DNA of 64,000 nucleotides, taken from Escherichia coli. GTDB lineage: Bacteria; Pseudomonadota; Gammaproteobacteria; Enterobacterales; Enterobacteriaceae. Each line of letters begins with the position of its first letter. Within the stretch, counting starts at the first letter, position 1. Positions 38,289 through 50,746 of this stretch are shown here, piece by piece. A program made the position numbers and the translations under genes. The notes beneath the pieces are model-generated. The model had not been told where the DNA came from and made no database searches. It saw nothing but the letters and a program-made list of their open reading frames with translations. Location: assembly GCF_044324875.1 (NCBI RefSeq), contig NZ_CP172185.1, one strand, 5' to 3'.

Positions 38289-39410
38289 TTACCCTTCGAA
38301 GAACCAATACCCGCTATTGACCAGCGCCGCGAGCATCGCGAGGAATGACGGATCTTCCAGCGCATCGCCAAAATTCTCCGCAGTCAGCGCAATGTTGCTG
38401 GCGAGTGCATCCAGTGCCGGACGGTGCGGGGAATCGATCTTCTCACCATTGGCATACACGTCGTCGCCAATGCGCAATACGCGCAGACCACCCAGACGCA
38501 CCAGCACTTCACCTTGTTTCAGCGCATCGTAGATTTCATCCGGCTGATAAGGCGGCTCTGGCGGCGCGATATCCAGTTCATGGCGTGACTGGGATATAAA
38601 CTCCCCAAACCATTGCTTAAAGTGTTCCGGCTGGTTGATCAATTCGAGCATCATCTCACGCAGTTTATCCATCTCTTGCGGCAGAACATCCGCAGGATGA
38701 GCGCGAGGTGAAACATCAGGATCGCTGTAGTAGTTGCCGCCCAGTTCACGTTGCAGCACATAATCGGCAAATCCGCTAATCAGTTCCCGCGTATTTGGTG
38801 CGCGAAAACCGACGGAATAGTTCATCGCATTTTCCAGCGCGTAGCCTTCATGGGGGAATCCTGGCGGAATATAAAGAATATCGCCTGGCTCCAGTTCTTC
38901 ATCAATGATGGCTTCGAACGGATCAACCTGTAACAGATCCGGGTGCGGGCAGTGCTGTTTCATTTGCAGCTTTTCGCCCACTCGCCAGCGACGACGTCCG
39001 GTACCCTGAATGATAAACACGTCGTACTGATCGAGATGCGGGCCGACGCCGCCGCCAGGTACAGAAAAAGAGATCATCAGATCATCAATACGCCAGTCCG
39101 GTAGTTCACGGAACGGTCGCATCAGCGCGGCGGTCGGCTCATGCCAGTGGTTCACTGCCTGCACTAACAATGACCAGTTAGTTTCACCGAGATGATCGTA
39201 GCTTTCGAACGGGCCGTGGCTGACCTGCCATTTGCCATCCTGGTGGCTGACCAGTCGACTGTCGACTTCGCTTTCCATCGCCAGACCCGCCAACTCGTCT
39301 GGAGAGATCGGGTCAATAAAATTATTAAAGCCGCGTTTTAACACCACCGGACGTTTCTGCCAGTGACGTTCAAGAAAATCGGGCCAGTTAAGAGTGAGTT
39401 GGTATTCCAT
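38289..39410 (-). CDS. roxA: Ribosomal oxygenase RoxA (YcfD), JmjC/cupin family
   Basis: 373 aa from MEYQLTLNWPDFLERHW; synteny with pepT. Confidence 0.9.
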   Translation of the reverse strand: MEYQLTLNWPDFLERHWQKRPVVLKRGFNNFIDPISPDELAGLAMESEVDSRLVSHQDGKWQVSHGPFESYDHLGETNWSLLVQAVNHWHEPTAALMRPFRELPDWRIDDLMISFSVPGGGVGPHLDQYDVFIIQGTGRRRWRVGEKLQMKQHCPHPDLLQVDPFEAIIDEELEPGDILYIPPGFPHEGYALENAMNYSVGFRAPNTRELISGFADYVLQRELGGNYYSDPDVSPRAHPADVLPQEMDKLREMMLELINQPEHFKQWFGEFISQSRHELDIAPPEPPYQPDEIYDALKQGEVLVRLGGLRVLRIGDDVYANGEKIDSPHRPALDALASNIALTAENFGDALEDPSFLAMLAALVNSGYWFFEG

Positions 39411-39611
39411 GTTAAGCATCCACAGGCTGGTATCTGCAACCGATTATAACGGATGCTTAACGTAATGCGTGAAGTATGGGCATACTTTATCAATTAGTGT
39501 TTTTTGCCGTTTCATAATGTTTCAGGTTGTGCATTATGTTTTTGATTATAAACAAATTTGTGATTTTTCTTGTTCCAGCTTGTTTCACGTTGTAGCCCTT
39601 TGTGCAACGAT

Positions 39612-39637
39612 CGGTGTAGTTAATGGTGTAGTTAATT
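39612..39637 (+). repeat. attL core: 26-bp direct repeat cggtgtagttaatggtgtagttaatt
   Basis: Identical copy at 50721-50746; itself contains an internal tandem gtgtagttaat duplication. Confidence 0.8.
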
Positions 39638-40888
39638 GTGATGACCGGATTCAAAATTATGAGCAGAGCACTTAACAAGCTGAGCGATACACAGCTAAGG
39701 AAAATCAACGGCACACCCGCCCAAAAAACAGCCTTTCTTAATGACGGTGGAAACTTGAGCGTCAGGCATTCAACCAGCGGCCTTTTAACCTGGTATTTCA
39801 CTTACAGGGCCGGAACGGGAAGGGGGGCATCACCGGAACGCATTAAGCTGGGAAATTATCCTGATCTGAGCCTGAAATCAGCCAGGGAAAAAGCCGCCCA
39901 GTGTCGCGCATGGCTGGCTGAGGGGAAAAATCCACGTCATGAGATGAATTACACCGTACAGGAAGCGTTAAAGCCTGTAACGGTTGGCGATGCGCTCACC
40001 TACTGGCTTGAGTCGTACGCAAAGGAAAACCGTGTGGATTATGACCCACTGAAAAAGCGGCTAAATAATCACGTAATACAGCACATTGGCCCTATGCCGC
40101 TGGATAAATGCGAGCTACGGCACTGGCTGGCCTGTTTTGATCGGGTGGCAAAGCAAGCCCCTGTTTCCGCCGGGTTCCTGCTACAGACATGCAAACAGGC
40201 GCTTAAGTTCTGCCGGAAGCGGCGCTATGCAATCAGCAACGTTCTTGATGATATGAGTGTGGCTGACGTTGGGAAAAAACCGGATATAGGCGAACGTGTC
40301 TTAAGTACCAAAGAACTGGGCGAATTATTGCAGGCACTGGACAAAAAAATATTTTCCCCTTACTACGTCGCACTAATCCGCCTCCTGATTGTTTTCGGAT
40401 GCCGGACAGTAGAACTGAGGTTATCGGAGATCGGCGAGTGGGATTTTACCGAAATGCTCTGGACCGTTCCGAAGGAGCACAGCAAAACGAAGGTAGCCAT
40501 ATTCCGGCCCATACCGGAAGCGATACTGCCGTTCGTCACGCAGCTGATGGAGCAGAACAGGCACACGGGCTTATTGCTGGGGGAAGTGAAACAGGAAACC
40601 AGCGTGTCGCAGTACGGCAGATTAGTGCACAGGAGGCTTAAACACCCTCACTGGTCACTGCATGACATCCGGCGCACCTTTACAACGATGCTGAACGATT
40701 TAGGCGTGGATCCTCACGTCGTGGAGCAGCTTACAGGCCACCAGATGCCAGGAATGCAGCGAGTTTATAATCATTCCCGTTATCTGGATGCGAAACGCAA
40801 TGCGCTGGATATGTGGACGGAGCGGTTAGGGATACTGGCGGGAGCACATGAAAACGTAACCACGCTACCAGTAACCAGAAGAAAATAA
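39638..40888 (+). CDS. int: Tyrosine-type site-specific integrase (P4-like family)
   Basis: C-terminal catalytic signature (…HDIRRTFTTML…GHQMPGMQRVYNHSRYLD…); true start possibly at MSRALNKLS (39659). Confidence 0.85.
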   Translation: MMTGFKIMSRALNKLSDTQLRKINGTPAQKTAFLNDGGNLSVRHSTSGLLTWYFTYRAGTGRGASPERIKLGNYPDLSLKSAREKAAQCRAWLAEGKNPRHEMNYTVQEALKPVTVGDALTYWLESYAKENRVDYDPLKKRLNNHVIQHIGPMPLDKCELRHWLACFDRVAKQAPVSAGFLLQTCKQALKFCRKRRYAISNVLDDMSVADVGKKPDIGERVLSTKELGELLQALDKKIFSPYYVALIRLLIVFGCRTVELRLSEIGEWDFTEMLWTVPKEHSKTKVAIFRPIPEAILPFVTQLMEQNRHTGLLLGEVKQETSVSQYGRLVHRRLKHPHWSLHDIRRTFTTMLNDLGVDPHVVEQLTGHQMPGMQRVYNHSRYLDAKRNALDMWTERLGILAGAHENVTTLPVTRRK

Positions 40889-40937
40889 TTTTTTTCGTGT
40901 TTTTTCAGTATGCGCATACTGGATAAGTGCACAGATA

Positions 40938-40969
40938 CAACGTGAAACAATAAGCAACAACGTGAAACA
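40938..40969 (+). repeat. Two direct copies of CAACGTGAAACA (candidate integrase arm-type or regulator binding sites)
   Basis: Copies at 40938-40949 and 40958-40969; inverted copies tgtttcacgttg at 39581-39592 (near attL) and tgttccacgttg at 50690-50701 (near attR). Confidence 0.5.
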
Positions 40970-41262
40970 ACCACGAACAAGAGGTCAAAAAGTATACAGA
41001 TTTATAAGTTGCTGATTTTTAATGCTCAACTGGTTTTTTATACATTAGCGAATAACGCTTTAAATAGTGAGAAAAAAGTCATAAAACGAGATTTTATGCC
41101 TTTGCATAATACTGAATTAAAATGATTTTTATTAAAATCACCCCGTTTCTGTAAAATACCCGCCACCAACATTTGCCAACTCTGAATCACCCTGACACAA
41201 TCAGACACATCCCAACGCAATAGAACACGAAATAACTCTTTAAGAAACGAAAGGGGGCAATA

Positions 41263-41451
41263 GTGTTAAGCACTGATCGGTTTATACGTGAAAAAGAATG
41301 CGAAAAGCTAACAGGCCTTAGCCGCTCATGCCGCTACCGCCTGGAAAAGGCCGGACAATTCCCATCACGGCGTAAGCTGGGCGGTCGTTCCGTTGGCTGG
41401 TCTTTATCCGAAGTTCTGGCATGGAAGGAAAGCTGCGAGGCAGTTCACTAA
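41263..41451 (+). CDS. AlpA/Xis-like small DNA-binding protein
   Basis: 62 aa; ...KECEKLTGLSRSCRYRLEKAGQFPSRRKLGGRSVGWSLSEVLAWK matches AlpA-type wHTH. Confidence 0.7.
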   Translation: MLSTDRFIREKECEKLTGLSRSCRYRLEKAGQFPSRRKLGGRSVGWSLSEVLAWKESCEAVH

Positions 41452-41777
41452 AAAGACTGGCGGCACACAGCCGCCACCCATCCACTAATACAGAGATTTA
41501 ACCATGAAGACTGGATATACGCCCGAACAGGGGCGGGGCTTCGTTCGGCCTGGTGAAACTGAAAAACAACAAAATCGCGGTTTTTCAGGCATAAAAAAAG
41601 CGGCCCCGATAAGGAGCCGCCTTTCTGAACAATTAACCTACAGCGCAAAAAATGAATCTGAGCAGTGGGATTATATCAACCGTGCAACGAAGCGCCACAA
41701 TTGCCGGATAACGGGCAAAGAAAAGGCCACCTGTCACGGTGGCCAATGTGATCAGTGTGGTGGCTTGCTGGTGGCTA

Positions 41778-41969
41778 TCAACCTTTGGGTTCTATACCGC
41801 GCCGCTTTAGTTCAGCGCGCCCCAACTCTTTAAGCCAGTTGGCTAGGCTTATGCCGTCGCTCTGCGCTTCTTTGTCGAATTGCTCTTTTAGCTCTGGAGA
41901 AATTCGCATTCTGAATTGTGGGGATTGCCCATCACCCTTAGGGCTTTTATCACGTTTGATTGTTGACAA
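41778..41969 (-). CDS. Arc/MetJ-type ribbon-helix-helix DNA-binding protein (candidate island repressor)
   Basis: 63 aa; FRMRISPELKEQFDKEAQSDGISLANWLKELG; transcribed divergently from the replication operon. Confidence 0.55.
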   Translation of the reverse strand: MSTIKRDKSPKGDGQSPQFRMRISPELKEQFDKEAQSDGISLANWLKELGRAELKRRGIEPKG

Positions 41970-42103
41970 GTGGTCACCTATTAAATTAGCCTTTCTATTG
42001 TTAGGTGGTCACCTTAACACGGGGACACTTAAAAAAGCAAAGCCCGAAGGCGCTAGGAACACCAACGGGCTTCTAACCACAAACCGTTATGAGAGGTAGT
42101 TTT

Positions 42104-42301
42104 ATGGCTGTAAGACAGCATACCCCACGACTAGCGCACACACAAACCGCCTTTGTGTGGCGTTTTCTGGCACTGAGTGCCGGAGAATCTCAAATCATCC
42201 ACGTAACCGCCTGGACGGAACGCGAAGCGCGTAGCCGTTGCCCGTCCGGTTGTGTTGCTGTATTCGCCGCCCGTATTCGTCAGGGGGTGTACCATGATTA
42301 A
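42104..42301 (+). CDS. Small hypothetical protein, first gene of rightward operon
   Basis: 65 aa from ATG 42104 with RBS gagagg; unknown family. Confidence 0.45.
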   Translation: MAVRQHTPRLAHTQTAFVWRFLALSAGESQIIHVTAWTEREARSRCPSGCVAVFAARIRQGVYHD

Positions 42302-42662
42302 CCTGTCACTTACCGATCTTAACCGCGTTCAGTTTCGTGAGAAATTTACCGGACAGCTACTCGTCAATGTGGAGAACGGGCGCATAGTGCGTAATTATCA
42401 CCTGCCGGATGGTGCAATTGCCGGAAGCGTTGAAGCATTGCTGGAACTGGCGGAACGTGCGCGACTGATTAAGCCGTCAACGAGCCATCACGATGATGAT
42501 CTGCATTTTACCGGATGTATGGTGAGTCACTACGAAAACGGCGTCGAGGTATCCTGCGAACGGCTGCGTGATGATTGCTGTTTCGGCACACTGCCGGAAT
42601 TTATCGAATTGCTGACCAGTTGCGGATATCAGGTTATTCAGGGGGTGCGCCATGTGCAATAA
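42294..42662 (+). CDS. Hypothetical protein (122 aa)
   Basis: Start MINLSLTDL overlaps upstream gene end; unknown family. Confidence 0.5.
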   Translation: MINLSLTDLNRVQFREKFTGQLLVNVENGRIVRNYHLPDGAIAGSVEALLELAERARLIKPSTSHHDDDLHFTGCMVSHYENGVEVSCERLRDDCCFGTLPEFIELLTSCGYQVIQGVRHVQ

Positions 42663-43107
42663 CATCCGTCCGGACGCAGCAGGCGAAGCCATCATAACGC
42701 TAATGCACGCGCTGATTGATATTTCATGCACGGCAGCAACCGCAGAAAAACACATTACCAGAGAGCCGGAATATACAGGGGCAATAATCCCGCATTCGCT
42801 GGCCTACGCACAGCTAACCGCTGATATGGCGCTGAATGAGGCTAAAGCCATCCTGATTGCTGATTGTGAAAATGGGGGGGGGGTTATGCGTGATGATCGT
42901 TTTAATTCCCTGAAACAGGAATTTTCCGGCGTTCCTGATAATGCGGCTGATGCGCTTTCGTCAATATCTGAAATTATGCGGGTGGCTTTTTTCTTTCTTT
43001 GCACTGATGAGCACAGGGATACAGGGCTAAATATTCTTGATATCGCCGCTAATTATGCTGATTTCGTAACGGAAACTGTTTTAAGAAAAACGACGGACGG
43101 GGATTAA
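42652..43107 (+). CDS. Hypothetical protein (151 aa)
   Basis: Overlapping start with previous gene; unknown family. Confidence 0.5.
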   Translation: MCNNIRPDAAGEAIITLMHALIDISCTAATAEKHITREPEYTGAIIPHSLAYAQLTADMALNEAKAILIADCENGGGVMRDDRFNSLKQEFSGVPDNAADALSSISEIMRVAFFFLCTDEHRDTGLNILDIAANYADFVTETVLRKTTDGD

Positions 43108-43108
43108 T

Positions 43109-43342
43109 ATGCGTGATATTTACCACGAAACAATAGACCGCGCATTTCTTGCACTTTCTCACAGTGAAAATATGTTGGAAATATTGCGCATATGTCTTGA
43201 AACGCTTGGAGATAATGAACGTGATAAACAGAAATCAATGATTGTCACGGCATTAATAACGCTTCTTGAGCCTGTAATAAATGAGTTGCAGGAAATAGAG
43301 ACATTACACGACCAGTATAAAGCGCCCCACACCGGAGAATAA
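43109..43342 (+). CDS. Hypothetical protein (77 aa)
   Basis: Tightly packed in operon; unknown family. Confidence 0.45.
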   Translation: MRDIYHETIDRAFLALSHSENMLEILRICLETLGDNERDKQKSMIVTALITLLEPVINELQEIETLHDQYKAPHTGE

Positions 43343-43347
43343 AAAAC

Positions 43348-43635
43348 ATGAAAAATAAAAATTCTGGCGTTAATGCCAGCGGCCCCGCTCGTCCTGAAAT
43401 CCGTCCCGGCGATATTTTCCGTGATAACTACGGCGGCACGGTAATGATTAAGGGCGTGGAAGAACGGCGCGTAACCTACCGCCGTGATGGCTACGAATAT
43501 GACTGCGTTATGCCTGTTTATCAGTTCCGGCGTGATTTCACGCTGGTGGGCCATCGTAAAGCCGTTAATCAGAAACGTGCTGCAAGTTATATCCGCAAAA
43601 TCCGTGAAATGCTGGTCGCAGGGGGTAAGAAATGA
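43348..43635 (+). CDS. Hypothetical basic protein (95 aa)
   Basis: Overlaps helicase gene start (ATGA); unknown family. Confidence 0.45.
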   Translation: MKNKNSGVNASGPARPEIRPGDIFRDNYGGTVMIKGVEERRVTYRRDGYEYDCVMPVYQFRRDFTLVGHRKAVNQKRAASYIRKIREMLVAGGKK

Positions 43636-45038
43636 AACTTGCACCGAACGTAAAACTGTTACCGAAAGATAAACACACTGAGGCGGTTATTTTTGCGGGT
43701 GATAATGCTCACTCCTTTGCAGAACATTACATGATTGCACAGGCCAAAAAAGCAGGCGATCCCATCCCTCCGGTTTACCTGGGCCGTTATCAGTTAAGCG
43801 AACTGGACAACTTACAGATTGTTGATGAAGGACGATACAGGGCAAAGGTCATACGCGCCGGAAACCTGGACGATATGCAGATGCTGACCATTGCCACAAA
43901 ACTGGCGATCGCCGGAGTCCAGGAGGCGCGCCTACTTTCTGAAAATTTCGAACTGCTGGAGGACTGGAGCGACCAGCTACCACGACTACGGGAAACATGG
44001 GAGAGAGGGGAAAGCCTGGTCATGAATGGCGGAAAGCGAAAAATCACACTTCCCATCTCATGGGGTTCTGAGGGATTCGATGCGCAGCAAAGCTACGTCA
44101 TTAAGGGGCTTATTCCGGCTGAGTCATTATGCAGCACCTACGGGGCCAGCGGTTCTTATAAATCGTTCCTCGCCATTTCCTGGTCGTGCCATGTTGCCAC
44201 AGGTATGGCATGGGGAGGCCGCAGGGTAAGTAAGGGTGCGGTTATCTATATCGCTGGCGAAGGCAGCATGGGCGTAAAACGCCGCGTTAAGGCGTGGGAG
44301 ATAACCCACGACAAGGTGGTTACAGATTTGTGCATCATTAACGCGCCTGTTTTCCCTGCATCGCCTGACTATGTGGAGCAGGTTATCAGGACTGCCGGAC
44401 TTGTTAAGAGCAGAACGGGCGAAAATGTGCGGCTGATTGTGATCGACACGCTGGCCCGTTGCTTTGGTGGGAATGATGAAAATGATTCCCGTGATATGGG
44501 CGCATTTATCCAGGGGTGTGACGCGATAAAGCAGGCCACAGGGGCCACGGTGCTGGTGGTTCACCATTCCGGCAAGGATGAAACAAAGGGGGCGCGTGGT
44601 TCCAGTGCATTCCGTGCCGCGCTTGATGCAGAGTACCGAATCAGCCGCGAAAATTCAGACGTTACAGCACTGGTCGCAGCATGTACGAAGATGAAGGACG
44701 CAGAGGAGCCAAAAGAGAGCGCATACGACCTTAAAAGCGTGGAGGTGTTCACCGATACAGATGGCGAAGAAATTGTGTCCATGGTGGTGATTGACGTTCC
44801 CCGCGCCCCTGCTGAACTGGAGCGCATCGAGGAGGCAGGCAACAAGACGGAAAACCATACCGCGCTATGGGGGTGCATCCGTTCACGCACACAGAACGGC
44901 GACAAGTGCACGATCCCGCTGTTACGTGATGACATGAAACGGCTTGGGTATGACGTGAAAAATATGCGGCGATGGTTAGCCAAACTGGAAAAAGACGCCG
45001 TGATTTACATTGATGGTGATGATGTAGGACCACTGTAA
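43632..45038 (+). CDS. Replication protein, RecA-fold P-loop ATPase/helicase (RepA/DnaB-like, satellite pri-rep position)
   Basis: 468 aa; P-loop-like YGASGSYKS, Walker-B-like LIVIDTL, followed immediately by iteron cluster. Confidence 0.7.
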   Translation: MKLAPNVKLLPKDKHTEAVIFAGDNAHSFAEHYMIAQAKKAGDPIPPVYLGRYQLSELDNLQIVDEGRYRAKVIRAGNLDDMQMLTIATKLAIAGVQEARLLSENFELLEDWSDQLPRLRETWERGESLVMNGGKRKITLPISWGSEGFDAQQSYVIKGLIPAESLCSTYGASGSYKSFLAISWSCHVATGMAWGGRRVSKGAVIYIAGEGSMGVKRRVKAWEITHDKVVTDLCIINAPVFPASPDYVEQVIRTAGLVKSRTGENVRLIVIDTLARCFGGNDENDSRDMGAFIQGCDAIKQATGATVLVVHHSGKDETKGARGSSAFRAALDAEYRISRENSDVTALVAACTKMKDAEEPKESAYDLKSVEVFTDTDGEEIVSMVVIDVPRAPAELERIEEAGNKTENHTALWGCIRSRTQNGDKCTIPLLRDDMKRLGYDVKNMRRWLAKLEKDAVIYIDGDDVGPL

Positions 45039-45238
45039 AAAGTGAGTAGTAAAAGTGAGTAATGGTGAGGTTTTTACAAAATATTAACACAATTACTCAC
45101 TTTCTCACCTGTATACATGCTCAAAAGTGAGCAGTGAAAAAACACTTATGAAACATGCACATATAAAACACAAAAATCTCAAGTGAGACGAAGTGAGACG
45201 CTTTAAAAAGTGAGTAGTAAAAGTGAGAGATGGTGAGC
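45037..45238 (+). repeat. Iteron cluster, putative island replication origin
   Basis: Multiple aaaagtgag / ggtgag repeats in both orientations around an AT-rich spacer (tttttacaaaatattaacacaatta), directly downstream of helicase gene. Confidence 0.65.
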
Positions 45239-45239
45239 A

Positions 45240-45608
45240 ATGAATAAAAACCGAACAGCAGGACAAAATACCGAAGGTAAATTTATGAACACTGAAATTG
45301 AAACACTGAGCATATCAACTGCCCTTCCTGGCTGGTGGGCTAAGTTCAAAGACGACGACGGCACGGAATGGTATAGCCCAATTGCTGCATGGGCGCTTTG
45401 TGATATCCACCATTTCGGCACCGGAGATACTTACCGCGAAATCTTACCCGTGCTGACCAGTGAGCTGGGCATGAGTCCGCATAGTCCTGATGAGGGAATG
45501 TGCGAGTGCCTTTATCTGCCGGATAAGAAGTTTGTTCACTGTGGTGAATCGATGGTATTTGCCTGGTATCCGGTTAACGACAGCAGCAATAGCGGTACTC
45601 TGGAGTAA
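45240..45608 (+). CDS. Hypothetical protein (122 aa; alternative start at 45285)
   Basis: ORF after ori; unknown family. Confidence 0.45.
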   Translation: MNKNRTAGQNTEGKFMNTEIETLSISTALPGWWAKFKDDDGTEWYSPIAAWALCDIHHFGTGDTYREILPVLTSELGMSPHSPDEGMCECLYLPDKKFVHCGESMVFAWYPVNDSSNSGTLE

Positions 45609-45611
45609 ATC

Positions 45612-45854
45612 ATGAAGGTAAACCACAAAAAGACAGATCACCGCGCCATTGACCTTACAGAGCACTGGCTGAGGGTGGCGATAAAAATCATCGACCGCAA
45701 CACGGGGGAAGGATACGCGAAAGCACATCCCGAACTGATAAGTGCATTCATGACCACAGCGGCGGCAAACTTTGCCACGCTGACAGAGCGGGATATTGCC
45801 GAAGCAGAACAGGTAACAACCATCAACGTTAAAACCAGTGAGGTGGAATCATGA
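45612..45854 (+). CDS. Hypothetical protein (80 aa)
   Basis: ORF overlapping ssb start; unknown family. Confidence 0.45.
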   Translation: MKVNHKKTDHRAIDLTEHWLRVAIKIIDRNTGEGYAKAHPELISAFMTTAAANFATLTERDIAEAEQVTTINVKTSEVES

Positions 45855-46261
45855 CAGCACAGATAGCGGCTTACGGGCGGCTGGTGGACGACCCGCAGGT
45901 AAAACAGACCAGTAAGGGTACACCGATGACGCTGGCGCGTATGGCGGTATCTTTACCATGCGGCCAGGCACAGGACGGACAGGCGACGTTATGGTTATCG
46001 GTCATCGCATTTGGCAAACAGGCCGACTTTCTGGCTAAACATCAAAAAGGCGACGTTGCCAGCGTATCCGGCACGATGCAGGTCAGCCAGTGGACCGGAC
46101 AGAACGGGGAAACGCGGCAGGGTTATCAGGTTATTGCAGACAGCGTAATCAGTGCCCGTGCGGCACGTCCTGGCGGGAACAGACGCAAAACCACAGGCAC
46201 ACAGGGTAATCAGCCACCAGCGGGAGGCGATGACCCTTACGGTGATGATATTCCGTTCTGA
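45851..46261 (+). CDS. Single-stranded DNA-binding protein (short SSB)
   Basis: 136 aa OB-fold-like with Gly/Pro-rich tail ending in acidic DDIPF, as in E. coli SSB. Confidence 0.7.
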   Translation: MTAQIAAYGRLVDDPQVKQTSKGTPMTLARMAVSLPCGQAQDGQATLWLSVIAFGKQADFLAKHQKGDVASVSGTMQVSQWTGQNGETRQGYQVIADSVISARAARPGGNRRKTTGTQGNQPPAGGDDPYGDDIPF

Positions 46262-46271
46262 GGGGGTGACG

Positions 46272-46544
46272 ATGGTACATGACCGCATAGCGGAGGAACT
46301 CGAGGCAAAAGGATTTTACCGGAGGGCGGCGGCGCGATGGGGTGAAGTTATGAGGCTGGTGAGCACTGACAAGGAGCGCGAACAGGTGGCAATGCGACGG
46401 CTGGAATGTTCCCTGAAGGCACAGAGGCCACCGGAGCCGCCGGATGATTTAGGCGCTCTGAAAAGGTCAGTTAATCGCACTGAAAAACAAATGGGGATAG
46501 CTGGTATTGGCAAAGCAATATGGCGCAACTACCCGCAGAAGTGA
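46272..46544 (+). CDS. PerC-family transcriptional regulator homologue
   Basis: 90 aa from MVHDRIAEELEAKGFYRRAAARW (RBS aggggg); resembles PerC/Pch family N-terminus as remembered. Confidence 0.55.
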   Translation: MVHDRIAEELEAKGFYRRAAARWGEVMRLVSTDKEREQVAMRRLECSLKAQRPPEPPDDLGALKRSVNRTEKQMGIAGIGKAIWRNYPQK

Positions 46545-46551
46545 GCACACA

Positions 46552-46573
46552 GCCGGAGCAATCCGGCTTTTTT
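46552..46573 (+). terminator. Rho-independent terminator after perC-like gene
   Basis: gccgga-gcaa-tccggc followed by tttttt. Confidence 0.7.
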
Positions 46574-46585
46574 ACGCCTAAAAAA

Positions 46586-46622
46586 AGCCCGATAAGGTCA
46601 AAGGGGGCTTATCGGGCTTTTG
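46586..46622. terminator. Second hairpin, possibly bidirectional terminator
   Basis: 11-bp stem agcccgataag / cttatcgggct flanked by A-run and T-run. Confidence 0.5.
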
Positions 46623-46784
46623 TAGAGGAGGTTTTTTATGGTGCACTGGCACACATGATCGGGATAATCATTTCATAATTTGCAACATAACTCAATATTG
46701 TTGCGCAAAATGCAATCATGATTATAATCAGGACTGGATGAACATCCAGTTATGATTTTTTAAGTCAAAGAGGAATTTCTGACT

Positions 46785-46991
46785 ATGGCAGAAGAGAAAA
46801 AAGGCGGGGTGACGGTCTACATAAGCCCCGACATCGTGGAGGCGCTCAAGGAACGCCACCAGCAGAATGTAAAAGCAGGCATTGCGGCAGGACTTGATCC
46901 GCTGGCGATGGTTGAGCCGTCAACAGGCTGGCAGGTGCGTACCTATTTACGTGCGGCGCTGGGTATCAATCAGGTTCACGGAGGTGAATAA
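46785..46991 (+). CDS. Small hypothetical protein preceding capsid gene
   Basis: 68 aa; stop overlaps capsid gene ATG. Confidence 0.45.
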   Translation: MAEEKKGGVTVYISPDIVEALKERHQQNVKAGIAAGLDPLAMVEPSTGWQVRTYLRAALGINQVHGGE

Positions 46992-48046
46992 TGACAGGCA
47001 AAGCAAAGGCACTTACAACTAACCAGCTTTTCGCGTACCTGAATCGCGGGGATATTTCGGAATATAAATTTAGTCCGCTGTTTACCACGCTGTTTTTCCC
47101 GAACGTGGCGACCTTCAACACCCAAAACATCATGCTGGACACCCTGGACATTGAAGAGGTTACGATGTCAGCGTTCTGTTCTCCTATGGTGGGTAGTCAG
47201 GTCCAGCGCGATAAAGGGTACGAAACCAGCACGATTAAACCAGGCTACATGAAGCCAAAGCACGAAATCGATCCAACAAAGACCATCATGCGCATGGATG
47301 GAGAAGATCCGGCACAGCTTAACGATCCAACTTACCGCCGTATGCGCCTGATTACTGGCAACATGCGCCGCCAGATAAACGCCATTAAGGCGCGCGTGGA
47401 ATGGCTGGCGGTGAATGCGGTAACGACCGGAAAAAACATCATTGAGGGCGAAGGCATAGAACGCTATGAAATCGACTGGAAAATACCGGAAAACTGCATC
47501 ATACAGCAGGCCAGTGGTAAAAAATGGTCCCAGCAGGATAAAGACATGCACGACCCAATCTATGACATCGAGCTTTATGCTGATCAGGCAGGTTGCCCCG
47601 CCAACGTCATGATTATGGGCGGTGAGGTATGGCGCACATTACGCAGCTTTAAAAAATTCCGTGAACTGTACGATCTTTCCCGTGGATCAGAATCCGCCGC
47701 CGAGCTGGCCTGTAAAAACCTGGGCGAAGTGGTGAGCTTTAAAGGCTATCTTGGTGATCTGGCCCTTATCGTCTATTCCGGCAAATACACTGACAGCGAC
47801 GGGACCGAAAAATATTTCCTTGAGCCTGATTTGCTGGTCCTGGGTAACACCAACAATAAAGGGCTGGTGGCATATGGTGCGATTATGGATCAGGAAGCGG
47901 TAAGAACGGGCGCAACGCAAAACATGTACTACCCGAAAAACTGGATTGAGGACGGCGATCCGGCGATTGAGTACGTGCAGACGCACAGCGCACCGCAGCC
48001 TGTACCGGCAGATATTCGCAAATTTGTTACCGTCAAAATTGCTTAA
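46991..48046 (+). CDS. Lambda gpE-family major capsid protein homologue
   Basis: 351 aa; collinear similarity to lambda E (KFSPLFTTLFF / KFDPLFLRLFF; PGYMKPKHEI / PGYVKPKHEV; DPTYRRMRLI / DPAYRRRRII; YYPKNWIEDGDPAIEY / RYPKNWVTTGDPAREF). Confidence 0.8.
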   Translation: MTGKAKALTTNQLFAYLNRGDISEYKFSPLFTTLFFPNVATFNTQNIMLDTLDIEEVTMSAFCSPMVGSQVQRDKGYETSTIKPGYMKPKHEIDPTKTIMRMDGEDPAQLNDPTYRRMRLITGNMRRQINAIKARVEWLAVNAVTTGKNIIEGEGIERYEIDWKIPENCIIQQASGKKWSQQDKDMHDPIYDIELYADQAGCPANVMIMGGEVWRTLRSFKKFRELYDLSRGSESAAELACKNLGEVVSFKGYLGDLALIVYSGKYTDSDGTEKYFLEPDLLVLGNTNNKGLVAYGAIMDQEAVRTGATQNMYYPKNWIEDGDPAIEYVQTHSAPQPVPADIRKFVTVKIA

Positions 48047-48057
48047 CGGGGGATTCT

Positions 48058-48393
48058 ATGGACGCTCCATACATTGAGTTATTTTCAGGCAGCCAACAGG
48101 TATCCACGACGCTGGTACATTTTGCCGCTGATGCTGGCGTTATTCAGGAATTTACCCCGCTGATGCTGGCAGACAATGGCGAGTTTAAGCCGTGGGATGG
48201 TAAGGAATCTGGCAAGGCTGTTTATCTGACCTCGTACCCTGTGGACACGTCAAAGCAGAAATCAGCACAGTGTTACAAGACGGGGATATTCAATATTGCC
48301 GCCGTTAACTGGCCTGACAGCGTCGACACCGATGCGAAAAAATGCGCCGCCTTTGCGGGTTCCGGCGTATCCGTTCAGCCGCTGGCCCGATAA
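48058..48393 (+). CDS. Lambda gpD-like head decoration protein homologue
   Basis: 111 aa; C-terminal GIFNIAAVNWPDSVDTDAKKCAAFAGSGVSV parallels lambda D [32 protein letters not shown]. Confidence 0.7.
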   Translation: MDAPYIELFSGSQQVSTTLVHFAADAGVIQEFTPLMLADNGEFKPWDGKESGKAVYLTSYPVDTSKQKSAQCYKTGIFNIAAVNWPDSVDTDAKKCAAFAGSGVSVQPLAR

Positions 48394-48467
48394 GCAGGGG
48401 GAACGATGGCACAAACCAGGGCGATGACGGCGACATCTATCGCATACTGAAAACCATCTGAGACAAG

Positions 48468-48490
48468 GCCGGAGAAATCCGGCTTTTTTT
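48468..48490 (+). terminator. Rho-independent terminator after decoration gene
   Basis: gccgga-gaaa-tccggc followed by ttttttt; near-duplicate of terminator at 46552. Confidence 0.7.
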
Positions 48491-48492
48491 GC

Positions 48493-48620
48493 GGGTCCTT
48501 TCCGGCATGTGGACCCGTTACGGGGCGTCGACCTCGCACGTTTTCGCTATTTATGAAAATTTTCCGGGAAAAAGCATGTCAGTTCTTCTTGTTATTAACA
48601 TATTGTTTTTAAAGAAATAA
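48493..48620 (+). promoter_or_regulatory. Lambda-type cos site (cosQ/cosN/cosB-like) upstream of terS
   Basis: gttacggggcgtcgacctcgcacgttttcgctatttatgaaaattttccgg closely matches remembered lambda cos (gttacggggcggcgacctcgcgggttttcgctatttatgaaaattttccgg); putative cosN gggcgtcgacct at 48523-48534. Confidence 0.75.
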
Positions 48621-48710
48621 CTATCAAGAAAGAAACGACATCATAATGATGAAAAATCTGTTTTTTTTGGCATTTCATGTCGTAACTGATTTTTGATAAG
48701 GAATTGCTGA

Positions 48711-49295
48711 ATGAATGTTAATAAAAAGAGGCTTGCCGAAATTTTTAACGTGGACCCGCGGACGATTGAACGCTGGCAGTCACAGGGGCTTCCTTGCGTC
48801 TCCAAAGGCAGTAAGGGCATTGAATCTGTATTTGATACTGCCATGGCAATTCAGTGGTATGCGCGGAGGGAAACTGATATCGAAAACGAAAAGCTCCGCA
48901 AAGAACTGGACGATTTGCGTGCGGCAGCGGAGTCAGATTTACAACCCGGCACCATTGACTATGAACGCTATCGGCTCACAAAAGCGCAGGCAGATGCGCA
49001 GGAACTTAAAAACGAGCGCGATCGCGGTGACGTGATTGATACAGAGTTTTGCATGTACGCGCTTTCAAAACTGGCGAGTCAGATTTCATCAATCATGGAC
49101 AGCCTCCCGCTTACTATGCAAAGGAGCTTCCCACAGATGACCCCCGCCATGCTGGATGGCCTGAAAAAAGAAGTTGTCAGAGCCTGTAACGCATGCACAA
49201 AACTTGATGAAAACATCCCGCGAATGCTGTCCGATTATCTGATGGAAACTACCGGAAATGTGCCTGATAAGTTTCAGCCGGATAAAGACAAGTAA
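48711..49295 (+). CDS. Terminase small subunit, lambda Nu1-like
   Basis: 194 aa; [28 protein letters not shown]...[29 protein letters not shown] parallels lambda Nu1 (MEVNKKQLADIFGASIRTIQNWQEQGMP...[29 protein letters not shown]). Confidence 0.85.
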
Positions 49296-49536
49296 CGTAG
49301 TGCACAATGACCGAAGCCAGTTTACTGACTGGCTTTCAGCGTTGCGCTGGTGGGCGTTATGCGTCAGTGATAAACGTCTCCAATATTACTGATATTCGAC
49401 ATCCCCACCTCTCCACACCAGCTCGAATATCATTTTTCTCATTAAAAACAGGACATTAAAAACTGGTCAGATGTCCCATAAAAAGCCAAATGGGACAGGT
49501 CAAAAGCTTTTTTTGCAGTAATTTTCAATAGGTTAC

Positions 49537-49935
49537 TTGATGTGGTGGTGTCCCATGAAAATTCAAAAATCAGCCGTTTTCCGCGATGCTCCCGCCCCGT
49601 GGCAGGGCACCCCACAAGGAGGACCCGCCATCACTATGGAGGACATGACCATGACCGAGACCGAAGCGCTCGGGATAATCCGCAGTATTACCGGAATCAG
49701 CCAGCAGGCTGGCGAACAGGAGGCCACGCAGCCGGACAGCGTGATCGCCGAAAATTACGTGCGTGTTGTTGCTGATGTAATGCGCCGTGATGGTATTGAG
49801 CTTAACGGCGTGGATATGCGCGACATACGAATCAGAGTACTAGAGTTGCTGGCATACCGTCGACGCGTGGCGATGTATCAGGAGAGCGCGAAAAACACTT
49901 ATCAGTGGAAGAAGCCGGAGCGGTTACGGCGGTAA
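49537..49935 (+). CDS. Hypothetical protein downstream of terS (likely shorter, start near 49651)
   Basis: ORF of 132 aa; RBS ggagg favours ATG around 49651 giving about 95 aa; unknown family. Confidence 0.4.
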   Translation: MMWWCPMKIQKSAVFRDAPAPWQGTPQGGPAITMEDMTMTETEALGIIRSITGISQQAGEQEATQPDSVIAENYVRVVADVMRRDGIELNGVDMRDIRIRVLELLAYRRRVAMYQESAKNTYQWKKPERLRR

Positions 49936-50290
49936 CTGGTTGATATTTTCGAAATTCGCCAGCGGCGAACATCGGGGAAACCAGCCTAACCAGTTGATTC
50001 TTTCGGAAACAGCCATTGGCGGAATCCGGCGCGGTAACTTGCTGATATTCCCGATAACGCAAAATTGCGCTGGCTACATCCCTCACATCTGAGGACTGAT
50101 AATGCGACATTGCGCTGGCTGGCAAAGTGCAAAATTGCACGATGGCCTAACCCATTGATTATTTCGAAAACCTGCAATGCAGGAAATCGGGGAAGTAAGC
50201 CTAAGCTATTGATTCTTTCGGAAACCTCAATTTGAGGAAGTCGGCGCGGTAACTCGCTGAACTTAAAGCAAACCTCAAAATTGAGCTGGC
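49932..50290 (+). repeat. Array of four degenerate repeats of a ttgattctttcggaaac-like motif with associated short palindromes
   Basis: Motif variants ggttgatattttcgaaat (49938-), cagttgattctttcggaaac (49991-), cattgattatttcgaaaac (50154-), ctattgattctttcggaaac (50205-); cggcgcggtaact at 50028 and 50242. Confidence 0.6.
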
Positions 50291-50720
50291 TGAATAATCA
50301 TTATGATTACGCAGATGATTAAGGAATGACCGAAGGCGGAAATTCGCCTGTGGTTGATGGGGGAGTTGCAGATCTGCAACTCGACCATGAAACTACGGAA
50401 ACTACCCGTAGTTTGGGTAGTAAGAGTAACACCCAGATTTTGGGACTTACTCGTGATACCCAAATTTGGAGTATCGGTGGCAACCATAACGACTTTCGTT
50501 ACGGTTGATGCTTTTACCCCATTGGGGGAAAGGTATTACGATAATCATAACACCTACCGAACAGGTAAAGCCCACCAGCCTGATTGACATTTAACCGGAA
50601 AAAAAGCCAGGTAGCCCCGTTATGTGGATCCCCATATCGACAGCAACGCCCCCTTAAAATTACCCGCCTTTATATTTCTTGTGCCTATTTGTTCCACGTT
50701 GTTTCATACAGTGCGCCGAA

Positions 50721-50746
50721 CGGTGTAGTTAATGGTGTAGTTAATT
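50721..50746 (+). repeat. attR core: second copy of 26-bp direct repeat
   Basis: cggtgtagttaatggtgtagttaatt identical to 39612-39637. Confidence 0.8.

Follow-up and report, generated by a model that had tools for sequence, protein, structure and literature searches.

A lambdoid cos site beside a chimeric small terminase gene in an EcCICFT073-family island of Escherichia coli

The island at the roxA/phoQ site

The window, by which we mean the whole stretch of 64,000 nucleotides of Escherichia coli contig NZ_CP172185.1 that was analysed, carries an island at 39612-50746, inserted at the roxA/phoQ site. Its unit length is 11,109 bp between two 26-nt direct repeats, both located by a repeat search: the attL core, CGGTGTAGTTAATGGTGTAGTTAATT, at 39612-39637, next to roxA (38289-39419), and the second copy, the attR core, at 50721-50746, after which phoQ comes next (50827-52287). 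The order of the genes is integrase, AlpA, an Icd-like region, DUF4222, a RepA-type helicase, SSB, PerC, a 68-aa protein, a gpE-like and a gpD-like protein, the cos site, terS, and a 94-aa protein.

Six of these genes are central to what follows, all on the plus strand; the last of them, terS, is described below. The tyrosine integrase occupies 39659-40888 (409 aa from an internal ATG; NCBIfam integrase, with Pfam Phage_integrase on the 99.97%-identical locus L015), and the AlpA-family regulator, 41263-41451 (62 aa; PF05930 on the identical gene of L015; same position as in EcCICFT073). The RepA-family replicative helicase is found at 43632-45038 (468 aa; phrog_2850, primase/helicase families, PF13481). 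Two genes resemble phage head genes: a homologue of c1499 at 46991-48046 codes for a major capsid protein of the lambda gpE family (351 aa; phrog_29, E=1.7e-108; PF03864 Phage_cap_E), a gene also present in EcCICFT073 (PMC6092414), and a homologue of c1500 at 48058-48393, for a head decoration protein of the lambda gpD family (111 aa; phrog_49; PF02924 HDPD). The integrase, alpA and replication genes are all intact, as is each att repeat. With integrase, alpA and primase-helicase in the same direction, att repeats, a length between 10 and 15 kb, and neither lysis nor tail genes, the element has the composition of a phage-inducible chromosomal island (PICI).

The comparison with EcCICFT073, the PICI of strain CFT073 that serves as the Gram-negative model (Fillol-Salom 2018 and 2019), is immediate: it uses the same roxA/phoQ att site, and shares the order int, alpA, DUF4222, replication gene, SSB, PerC, gpE-like gene, gpD-like gene, cos module. 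The cosQ, the spacer and cosN are near-identical in the two islands, and in both the cos lies directly upstream of the packaging-specificity gene. The differences are in that gene and in the rest of the cos. EcCICFT073 has no TerS, but a 144-aa RppA in the slot where the window island has a 194-aa TerS of the Nu1 family; and its cos1, without the phage R, I1, R2 and R1 elements (PMC9026076), is accompanied by a second, inverted cos2, whereas the single cos of the window island is equipped with a complete cosB of phage type. On the strength of shared site and gene order, the element at 39612-50746 is an allele of EcCICFT073 in which terS replaces rppA. It is known from experiments that the terminases of lambdoid helpers package islands of this family, the cos sites of EcCICFT073 mediating transfer that depends on lambda, phi80 or "phage 4" (PMC6092414, PMC6739421), with a packaging specificity that depends on RppA, the product of c1503 (PMC6739421).

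Three observations can be added on the island itself. A homologue of c1501 (137 aa; "head-tail connector" in PGAP) separates the decoration gene and the cos in EcCICFT073 and most of its relatives; at 48394-48460 of the window, a deletion between 9-bp direct repeats, ACGATGGCA, has left only its last ~55 nt. The same deletion is found in four other assemblies, the gene being intact in L018; in EcCICFT073, a c1501::tetA insertion left transfer possible (PMC6092414). Immediately 3' of the RepA-helicase gene, two 37-nt direct repeats (45033-45069 and 45201-45237, 92% identical, rich in AAAAGTGAGTAG) sit where PICI replication origins are reported, so that they are probably iterons of the origin. 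Finally, the window holds no helper prophage: iraM, not a prophage, follows icd.

The cos site

The window was aligned with lambda (the DE3 record, with its annotated cos), with Escherichia phage PhiR5_1, and with phage 21, whose record OL657228 marks cosN, R3, I1, R2, R1 and cosQ. A full lambdoid cos is present at 48493-48689, with cosQ, cosN, R3, I1, an inverted R2, and R1. The stretch from cosQ through I1 aligns to lambda and to phage 21 free of indels, and a 1-nt offset precedes R2.

The cosQ heptamer GGGTCCT, the packaging-termination subsite, is at 48493-48499 on the plus strand: it is exact, and the 23-bp gap that separates it from cosN is also that of lambda and of the phage 21 annotation. 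The cosN, at 48523-48534 on the plus strand, has a predicted 12-nt cohesive end, GGGCGTCGACCT, that matches the GGGCGGCGACCT of lambda, phage 21 and PhiR5_1 in 11 of 12 positions, the sole change, at position 6, defining an allele that we denote G6T. The cosB element R3, AAGCATGTCAGTTCTT, lies at 48572-48587 on the plus strand, that is, at +50 to +65 from the start of the cohesive end, as in lambda and 21; mapped without indels onto the annotated phage 21 R3, it is identical to PhiR5_1 in 16/16 positions, to 21 in 12/16, and to lambda in 12/16. The homologue of the IHF site I1, TAACATATTGTTT, follows at 48596-48608 on the same strand, with 11/13 positions in common with both the annotated phage 21 I1 and lambda. 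The two remaining elements were also mapped onto the phage 21 annotation: R2, inverted, is on the minus strand at 48630-48645 (reverse complement TATGATGTCGTTTCTT; PhiR5_1 15/16), and R1, TTTCATGTCGTAACTGA, on the plus strand at 48673-48689 (PhiR5_1 17/17; 21, 12/17).

The similarity is far above chance. When 48400-48720 is compared by blastn with 50,697 phage records, it aligns to the cos of lambda and its relatives with 76.6% identity over 153 nt (E=2e-23), and to PhiR5_1 with 94% over 234 nt (E=9e-97); the window has a single match to the 21-nt core of cosN at 3 mismatches or fewer, for an expected 0.00 over 100 shuffles. A second inverted cos in the style of the EcCICFT073 cos2 was sought in the window at up to 3 mismatches, and none was found. 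Judging by the order, spacing and identity of its subsites, the segment 48493-48689 is the cos site, for both initiation and termination of packaging, of this 11.1-kb PICI of the EcCICFT073 family.

A preliminary description of this DNA had recognised a near-lambda cos immediately upstream of a Nu1-like gene, with a cohesive end one change away from that of lambda. All of this holds: the segment that it quoted is present at 48517-48567, inside the mobile island, a Nu1-family terS starts at 48711, and the alignment with lambda cos, suggested there as a check, brings the subsites into register. Two of its statements need adjustment. The interval proposed, 48493-48620, starts exactly at cosQ, but ends before R2 and R1; and the claim of only a few differences from the lambda cosN/cosB applies from cosQ to about +49, not to the R elements. 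Segment by segment, identity to lambda is 11/12 in cosN, 32/37 from +13 to +49, 12/16 in R3, 11/13 in I1, 11/16 in R2 and 9/18 in R1.

Directly 5' of cosQ, at 48465-48490 on the plus strand, is a GC-rich hairpin followed by a run of seven U, similar to an intrinsic terminator (RNA fold of -19.1 kcal/mol, z=-2.9) and kept in EcCICFT073 and in the O55:H7 island. A scan of the locus with consensus terminator and promoter models did not call this hairpin, and returned no promoter for terS.

The G6T allele

Position 6 of cosN is the centre of the site, the farthest from the nick positions. Natural variation in cosN is common at base pairs 7 to 12, and mutations of the left half can be costly (Feiss et al., PMC4669245). 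The G6T allele, together with the same cosQ-cosN spacer, CCGGCATGTGGACCC, is found in two E. coli prophages that have terS, terL, a W-like gene and a portal gene (L007 and L009), in several PICIs (L003, L006, L008 and L012), and in 10 viral contigs of IMG/VR, in several of which terS and terL come directly after it. Its presence beside intact terS, terL and portal genes in prophages, and in the viral contigs, indicates that the allele works: as far as these neighbourhoods allow us to judge, lambdoid terminases use G6T as one of the natural alleles of cosN. Among the isolated phages of INPHARED, the best matches to the 79-nt cosQ-cosN query reach 88%.

The alternative of a disabling mutation or a sequencing error was considered for G6T, and is ruled out by the same prophages, PICIs and 10 viral contigs.

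A chimeric small terminase

The gene terS, at 48711-49295 on the plus strand, begins with an ATG directly downstream of the cos, and its reading frame and ribosome-binding site are intact. The product is a chimeric small terminase of 194 aa (PF07471 Phage_Nu1; phrog_57, E=4e-68), aligned with lambda Nu1 at 53% identity over 180 aa with zero gaps, and nearest to gp1 of phage 21, at 71% overall. An N-terminal winged-HTH DBD, a central coiled coil and a C-terminal domain, presumed to bind TerL, are collinear with those of Nu1. PDB entries of TerS DBDs match the protein at E=2e-36 to 9e-14; one of them, 7lwr, whose 54 residues are by sequence identity the first 54 of phage 21 gp1, matches at 51/54.

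The overall figure of 71% conceals two very different halves. Residues 1-100, the DBD and coiled coil, are identical to 21 gp1 in 97 of 100 positions (52/55 in residues 1-55, and 45/45 in residues 56-100). Over residues 101-180, the count drops to 28/80 for 21 gp1, 34/80 for lambda Nu1 and 44/80 for PhiR5_1, but rises to 80/80 for the TerS of islands L006 and L012, and to 79/80 for that of island L014. Identity to the C-termini of phage TerS proteins ranges from 35 to 55%, and in the 50,697 phage records there is none above 55%; within the domain, the last 35 residues (LDE.IP..LS.Y) are nearer lambda and PhiR5_1 than 21. Lambda TerS binds TerL through its last ~40 residues (PMC9026076). Residues 101-194 form a C-terminal domain of an island-specific lineage, common to many PICIs, whose presumed role is the binding of TerL; at 35-55% identity to its phage counterparts, any given TerL is no more than a candidate partner for it.

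The DNA tells a similar story. A 40-nt sliding comparison across cos and terS yields a mosaic of four parts: island backbone to ~48560, a PhiR5_1-type cosB from 48560 to 48715, a phage-21-type 5' part of terS from 48715 to 49000, and an island-type 3' part from 49000. Identity to phages stops at ~49000. No terL, a gene that in a lambdoid packaging module overlaps the 3' end of terS, and no large ORF at all is found between the end of terS (49295) and phoQ, where the sole other called gene is that of the 94-aa protein; phage 21, on the contrary, has gp2, its TerL, after gp1.

Since the gene occupies the slot of rppA, its product was also considered as an Rpp protein. This candidate is ruled out: identity to RppA is 22%, phmmer gives E=0.16 to RppC, and the 194-aa protein has a complete Nu1-like C-terminus, whereas Rpps measure about 144-153 aa and lack the TerL-binding region of TerS.

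Specificity of cosB and TerS

The three R copies of the window share an ATGTC(G/A) core; the corresponding cores are TGTCGG in 21 and CGTTTCC in lambda. Over all of cosB, the DNA is 90-100% identical to PhiR5_1 and 60-70% identical to 21. Two TerS residues, 20 and 24, are implicated in the discrimination between lambda and 21 (PMC4669245): the island protein has E20 and S24, as 21 does, while lambda has Q20 and E24. The marks of lambda packaging specificity, the R core CGTTTCC and the pair Q20 and E24, are thus found in neither the cos nor the TerS of the window. By these sequence criteria the cosB and the TerS DBD are in the phage-21/PhiR5_1 specificity class, not that of lambda. With ATGTC(G/A) cores and a 21-like DBD carrying E20 and S24, lambda terminase is probably the wrong enzyme for a cleavage assay of this cos. 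As the cosB DNA is PhiR5_1-like but the DBD is 21-like, it is from the shared TGTC cores that we infer the cognate pairing of TerS and cosB.

The island cos compares well with that of phage 21, with an identical cosQ, 11/12 positions of cosN, the same order and spacing of the subsites, and TGTC in the R cores.

Related islands

We now turn to the distribution of these modules. Of 5426 complete E. coli genomes, 656 (~12%) carry the island-type 3' half of terS, among them the one with the O55:H7 roxA/phoQ island, with matching hits in many O157:H7 genomes. In a larger collection, the exact TerS protein is found on 107 contigs, and in five independent assemblies that have it, the island is the same and the cos 100% identical. 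The exact arrangement of cosB and chimeric terS, sought at a query coverage of at least 80%, is found in 0 of the 5426 complete RefSeq E. coli genomes.

The N-terminal DBD that accompanies the conserved C-terminal domain differs among the related islands, and the cosB variants match it. At least three cassettes can be distinguished: a short DBD with an R3 of the GGTGGTGG type (L006, L012 and L013), a longer DBD whose full cosB has R elements of the AGATCC type (L014), and, in the window island, a 21-type DBD with a full cosB of the ATGTC type. That the C-terminal domain is 100% conserved in islands whose DBDs differ points to a positive function, the capture of TerL for instance, and not to a mere loss of function.

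That some PICIs carry terS is known. The gene is a core, but not universal, component of PICIs (PMC6092414, PMC10085698), treated by SatelliteFinder as a core component that redirects packaging (PMC10085698), and two TerS-encoding E. coli PICIs, IHE3034 and 18098, are on record with unidentified helpers (PMC6092414, PMC10085698). In our search of the literature, whose coverage is incomplete, we found catalogue-level mentions only, and nothing on how a Nu1-type TerS works in a cos-type or Gram-negative PICI.

Some details of these relatives deserve to be recorded. At the R3 position, cos1 of EcCICFT073 (L011) has the motif GTGACACCACCACCAC, the reverse complement of the GGTGGTGGTGG that appears in forward orientation in the TerS islands L006, L012 and L013; the inverse relation at the same position suggests a related recognition sequence, in opposite orientation, in Rpp-type and TerS-type islands. 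A "PICI-type" R3, TGGTTGTTGTTTAATT, also seen in the GF4 and strain-135 islands, occurs in two IMG/VR contigs (L025:7509-9483 and L026:12859-13816), where terS comes next, together with a terL that has 91% identity to 21 gp2: this class of cosB exists in apparent phages as well, and is not exclusive to satellites. A third IMG/VR contig, L027, of 4.6 kb, has a gpE-like capsid gene of island type (98.6% identity to that of the window), then a cos, then terS and terL of phage type; it could be a satellite embedded in or adjacent to a helper, a hybrid element, or an assembly chimera.

Finally, in two assemblies with an identical island, a lambdoid-type integrase gene (Arm-DNA-bind_1 and Phage_integrase) lies immediately after icd (L016:18975-19265 and L017:15092-15382). 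This is the site of helper phage 4 of CFT073, a prophage with a 21-type cos and TerS, and the integrase may therefore belong to a resident helper.

Discussion

The explanation that we consider probable is that of a PICI cos served by the island's own TerS, which would bind cosB and recruit the TerL of a helper, the latter cutting cosN and packaging concatemers. The sequence of events would be the following. Induction by a lambdoid helper phage would lead the island to excise and to replicate as concatemers; island TerS would bind R3, R2 and R1 across an I1 bent by IHF, and its Nu1-like C-terminal domain would recruit helper TerL; TerL would then nick cosN, producing 12-nt GGGCGTCGACCT cohesive ends, and the DNA would enter helper capsids until packaging stops at a downstream cosQ-cosN. 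About four island units, or 44.4 kb, would fill a lambda-sized head. The lower limit of packaging in lambda is ~78% of the genome: three units, 33.3 kb, fall below it, but four amount to 92% of the lambda genome, a length that fits the multimer packaging reported for EcCICFT073 (PMC6092414). Whenever the cosB specificity of the helper differs, TerL would be diverted from the helper's own cos, and a 21-type helper TerS could, in addition, recognise the island cos directly.

The preliminary description held the cos to be direct evidence of packaging by, or competition for, a lambda-type terminase. It is right in that the cos is a genuine member of the lambda family and related islands are packaged (PMC6092414, PMC6739421), but the similarity of sequences is strong, yet indirect, evidence of packaging, and the cosB is of the 21/PhiR5_1 type.

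The direct recognition just mentioned leads to another account, in which it would be the whole mechanism: helper TerS and TerL of the 21 type recognise the island cosB, as with SaPIbov5 and cosmids, and the island TerS mainly interferes, by forming mixed oligomers in which a foreign C-terminal domain poisons the recruitment of TerL. Residues 1-100 have 97% identity both to 21 gp1 and to its counterpart in helper phage 4 of CFT073, which makes co-oligomerisation plausible; the divergence from 21 gp1 over the C-terminal domain, the precedent of Rpp proteins, which act by binding helper TerS (PMC6739421), and the two assemblies with an integrase gene at the helper phage 4 site go in the same direction. 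However, the C-terminal domain keeps a Nu1-like length and Nu1-like motifs, with no gaps, and the same domain is found elsewhere with a cosB and DBD of non-phage type, in islands whose cos a helper TerS could not recognise. We regard this account as unlikely. Still less likely, in our opinion, is a mode of action modelled on Rpp, in which the island TerS must heterodimerise with a helper TerS that supplies the TerL-binding domain. Such is the characterised mechanism of EcCICFT073, an allelic island at the same locus and with the same gene slot (PMC6739421); but the island protein is barely similar to RppA and RppC, it has a full Nu1-like C-terminal domain where Rpps are without the last 30-40 residues (PMC9026076), and its cosB has the I1, R2 and R1 that are absent from the cos sites of Rpp-type PICIs (PMC9026076).

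There is also the possibility that the cos and terS are a non-functional relic: an island that is no longer mobile would have acquired, through recombination, a piece of a decayed lambdoid prophage. The module is indeed a recombinational mosaic of island, PhiR5_1-like and 21-like DNA, the adjacent c1501 homologue is deleted, and the exact arrangement was found in none of the 5426 complete RefSeq genomes. But int, alpA and the replication gene are as intact as the cos subsites with their spacing, the terS frame with its ribosome-binding site, and both att repeats; the module is identical in multiple assemblies, one of which has an intact c1501 homologue; and the breakpoints fall at boundaries of functional domains, as in viable lambda-21 hybrid phages (PMC9026076). 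Intact subsites, reading frame and att repeats, and the conservation of the module across assemblies, make decay the least likely of the readings, and we give it very little credence.

Returning to the capture of helper TerL by island TerS, known systems offer several points of comparison. For the protein there are the TerS of the lambda-21 hybrid phages of the Feiss laboratory, which likewise combine a 21-type N-terminal half with a C-terminal half of another lineage that sets the TerL partner, and in which the crossover, as in the island TerS, is in the conserved central helix (PMC9026076); but those hybrids are laboratory-made, with a C-terminal half from lambda, whereas the island TerS is a natural chimera whose C-terminal half is specific to satellites. 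In the pac SaPIs, SaPI1 and SaPIbov1, the satellite supplies a small terminase alone and uses the TerL of the helper for preferential packaging (PMC6739421), with a TerS of a different family and by headful (pac) packaging, in contrast to the cos-type, Nu1-family system of the window island, with its defined cohesive ends. The cos SaPIs, such as SaPIbov5, and P4 carry a copy of a helper-type cos that is cut by the helper terminase; unlike the window island they have no terminase subunit of their own, and their cos/terminase families (phi12-type, HNH-dependent, and P2-type) are unrelated to that of lambda.

A more general conjecture, which we advance tentatively and would not yet call the likelier outcome, is that E. 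coli PICIs of this family use a modular TerS for TerL capture, made of a conserved satellite C-terminal domain and of interchangeable DBD/cosB cassettes recombined with helper phages. Were this true, satellites would switch packaging specificity independently of the TerL that they parasitise, and the window island would be a natural chimera akin to the lambda-21 hybrids, and the cos-type equivalent of what SaPIs achieve with their TerS, by a mechanism other than that of Rpp. The element itself belongs to the known family of EcCICFT073-type PICIs, and this modular TerS/cosB design alone may be under-described.

With respect to EcCICFT073, the comparison suggests that one PICI backbone can use alternative modules to hijack packaging: a full cos with a Nu1-type TerS, or RppA with a stripped-down cos. 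The version studied so far is the stripped-down one, and the window island copies the whole phage-type cos. If its TerS does capture helper TerL, the island would provide a simple cos-type analogue of the SaPI TerS strategy, and a natural experiment on the modularity of TerS, opposing the specificity of DBD and cosB to that of TerL binding; in the Feiss laboratory, this modularity has reportedly been explored only through engineered lambda-21 hybrids. Two predictions follow from the sequences: the virion DNA ends of the island would be GGGCGTCGACCT, and the mobilising helpers would be phages with 21-type cosB specificity, or any phage whose TerL binds the island C-terminal domain. The island, moreover, adjoins the virulence regulator phoPQ.

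Other features of the window

The non-coding stretch between the last gene of the island and attR contains a 113-nt direct repeat of 74% identity (49933-50045 and 50148-50260), and three copies of a 23-nt motif, GATAAYGCRAMATTGCGCTGGCT. Outside of the island, an ALIL pseudoknot at 27070-27186 (Rfam RF01497, 116 bits) marks a transposase of the IS3 family with programmed frameshift, and the interval 30019-32352 holds three ORFs of 512, 115 and 133 aa on the reverse strand, which we take, from their layout, to be IS66-family-like.
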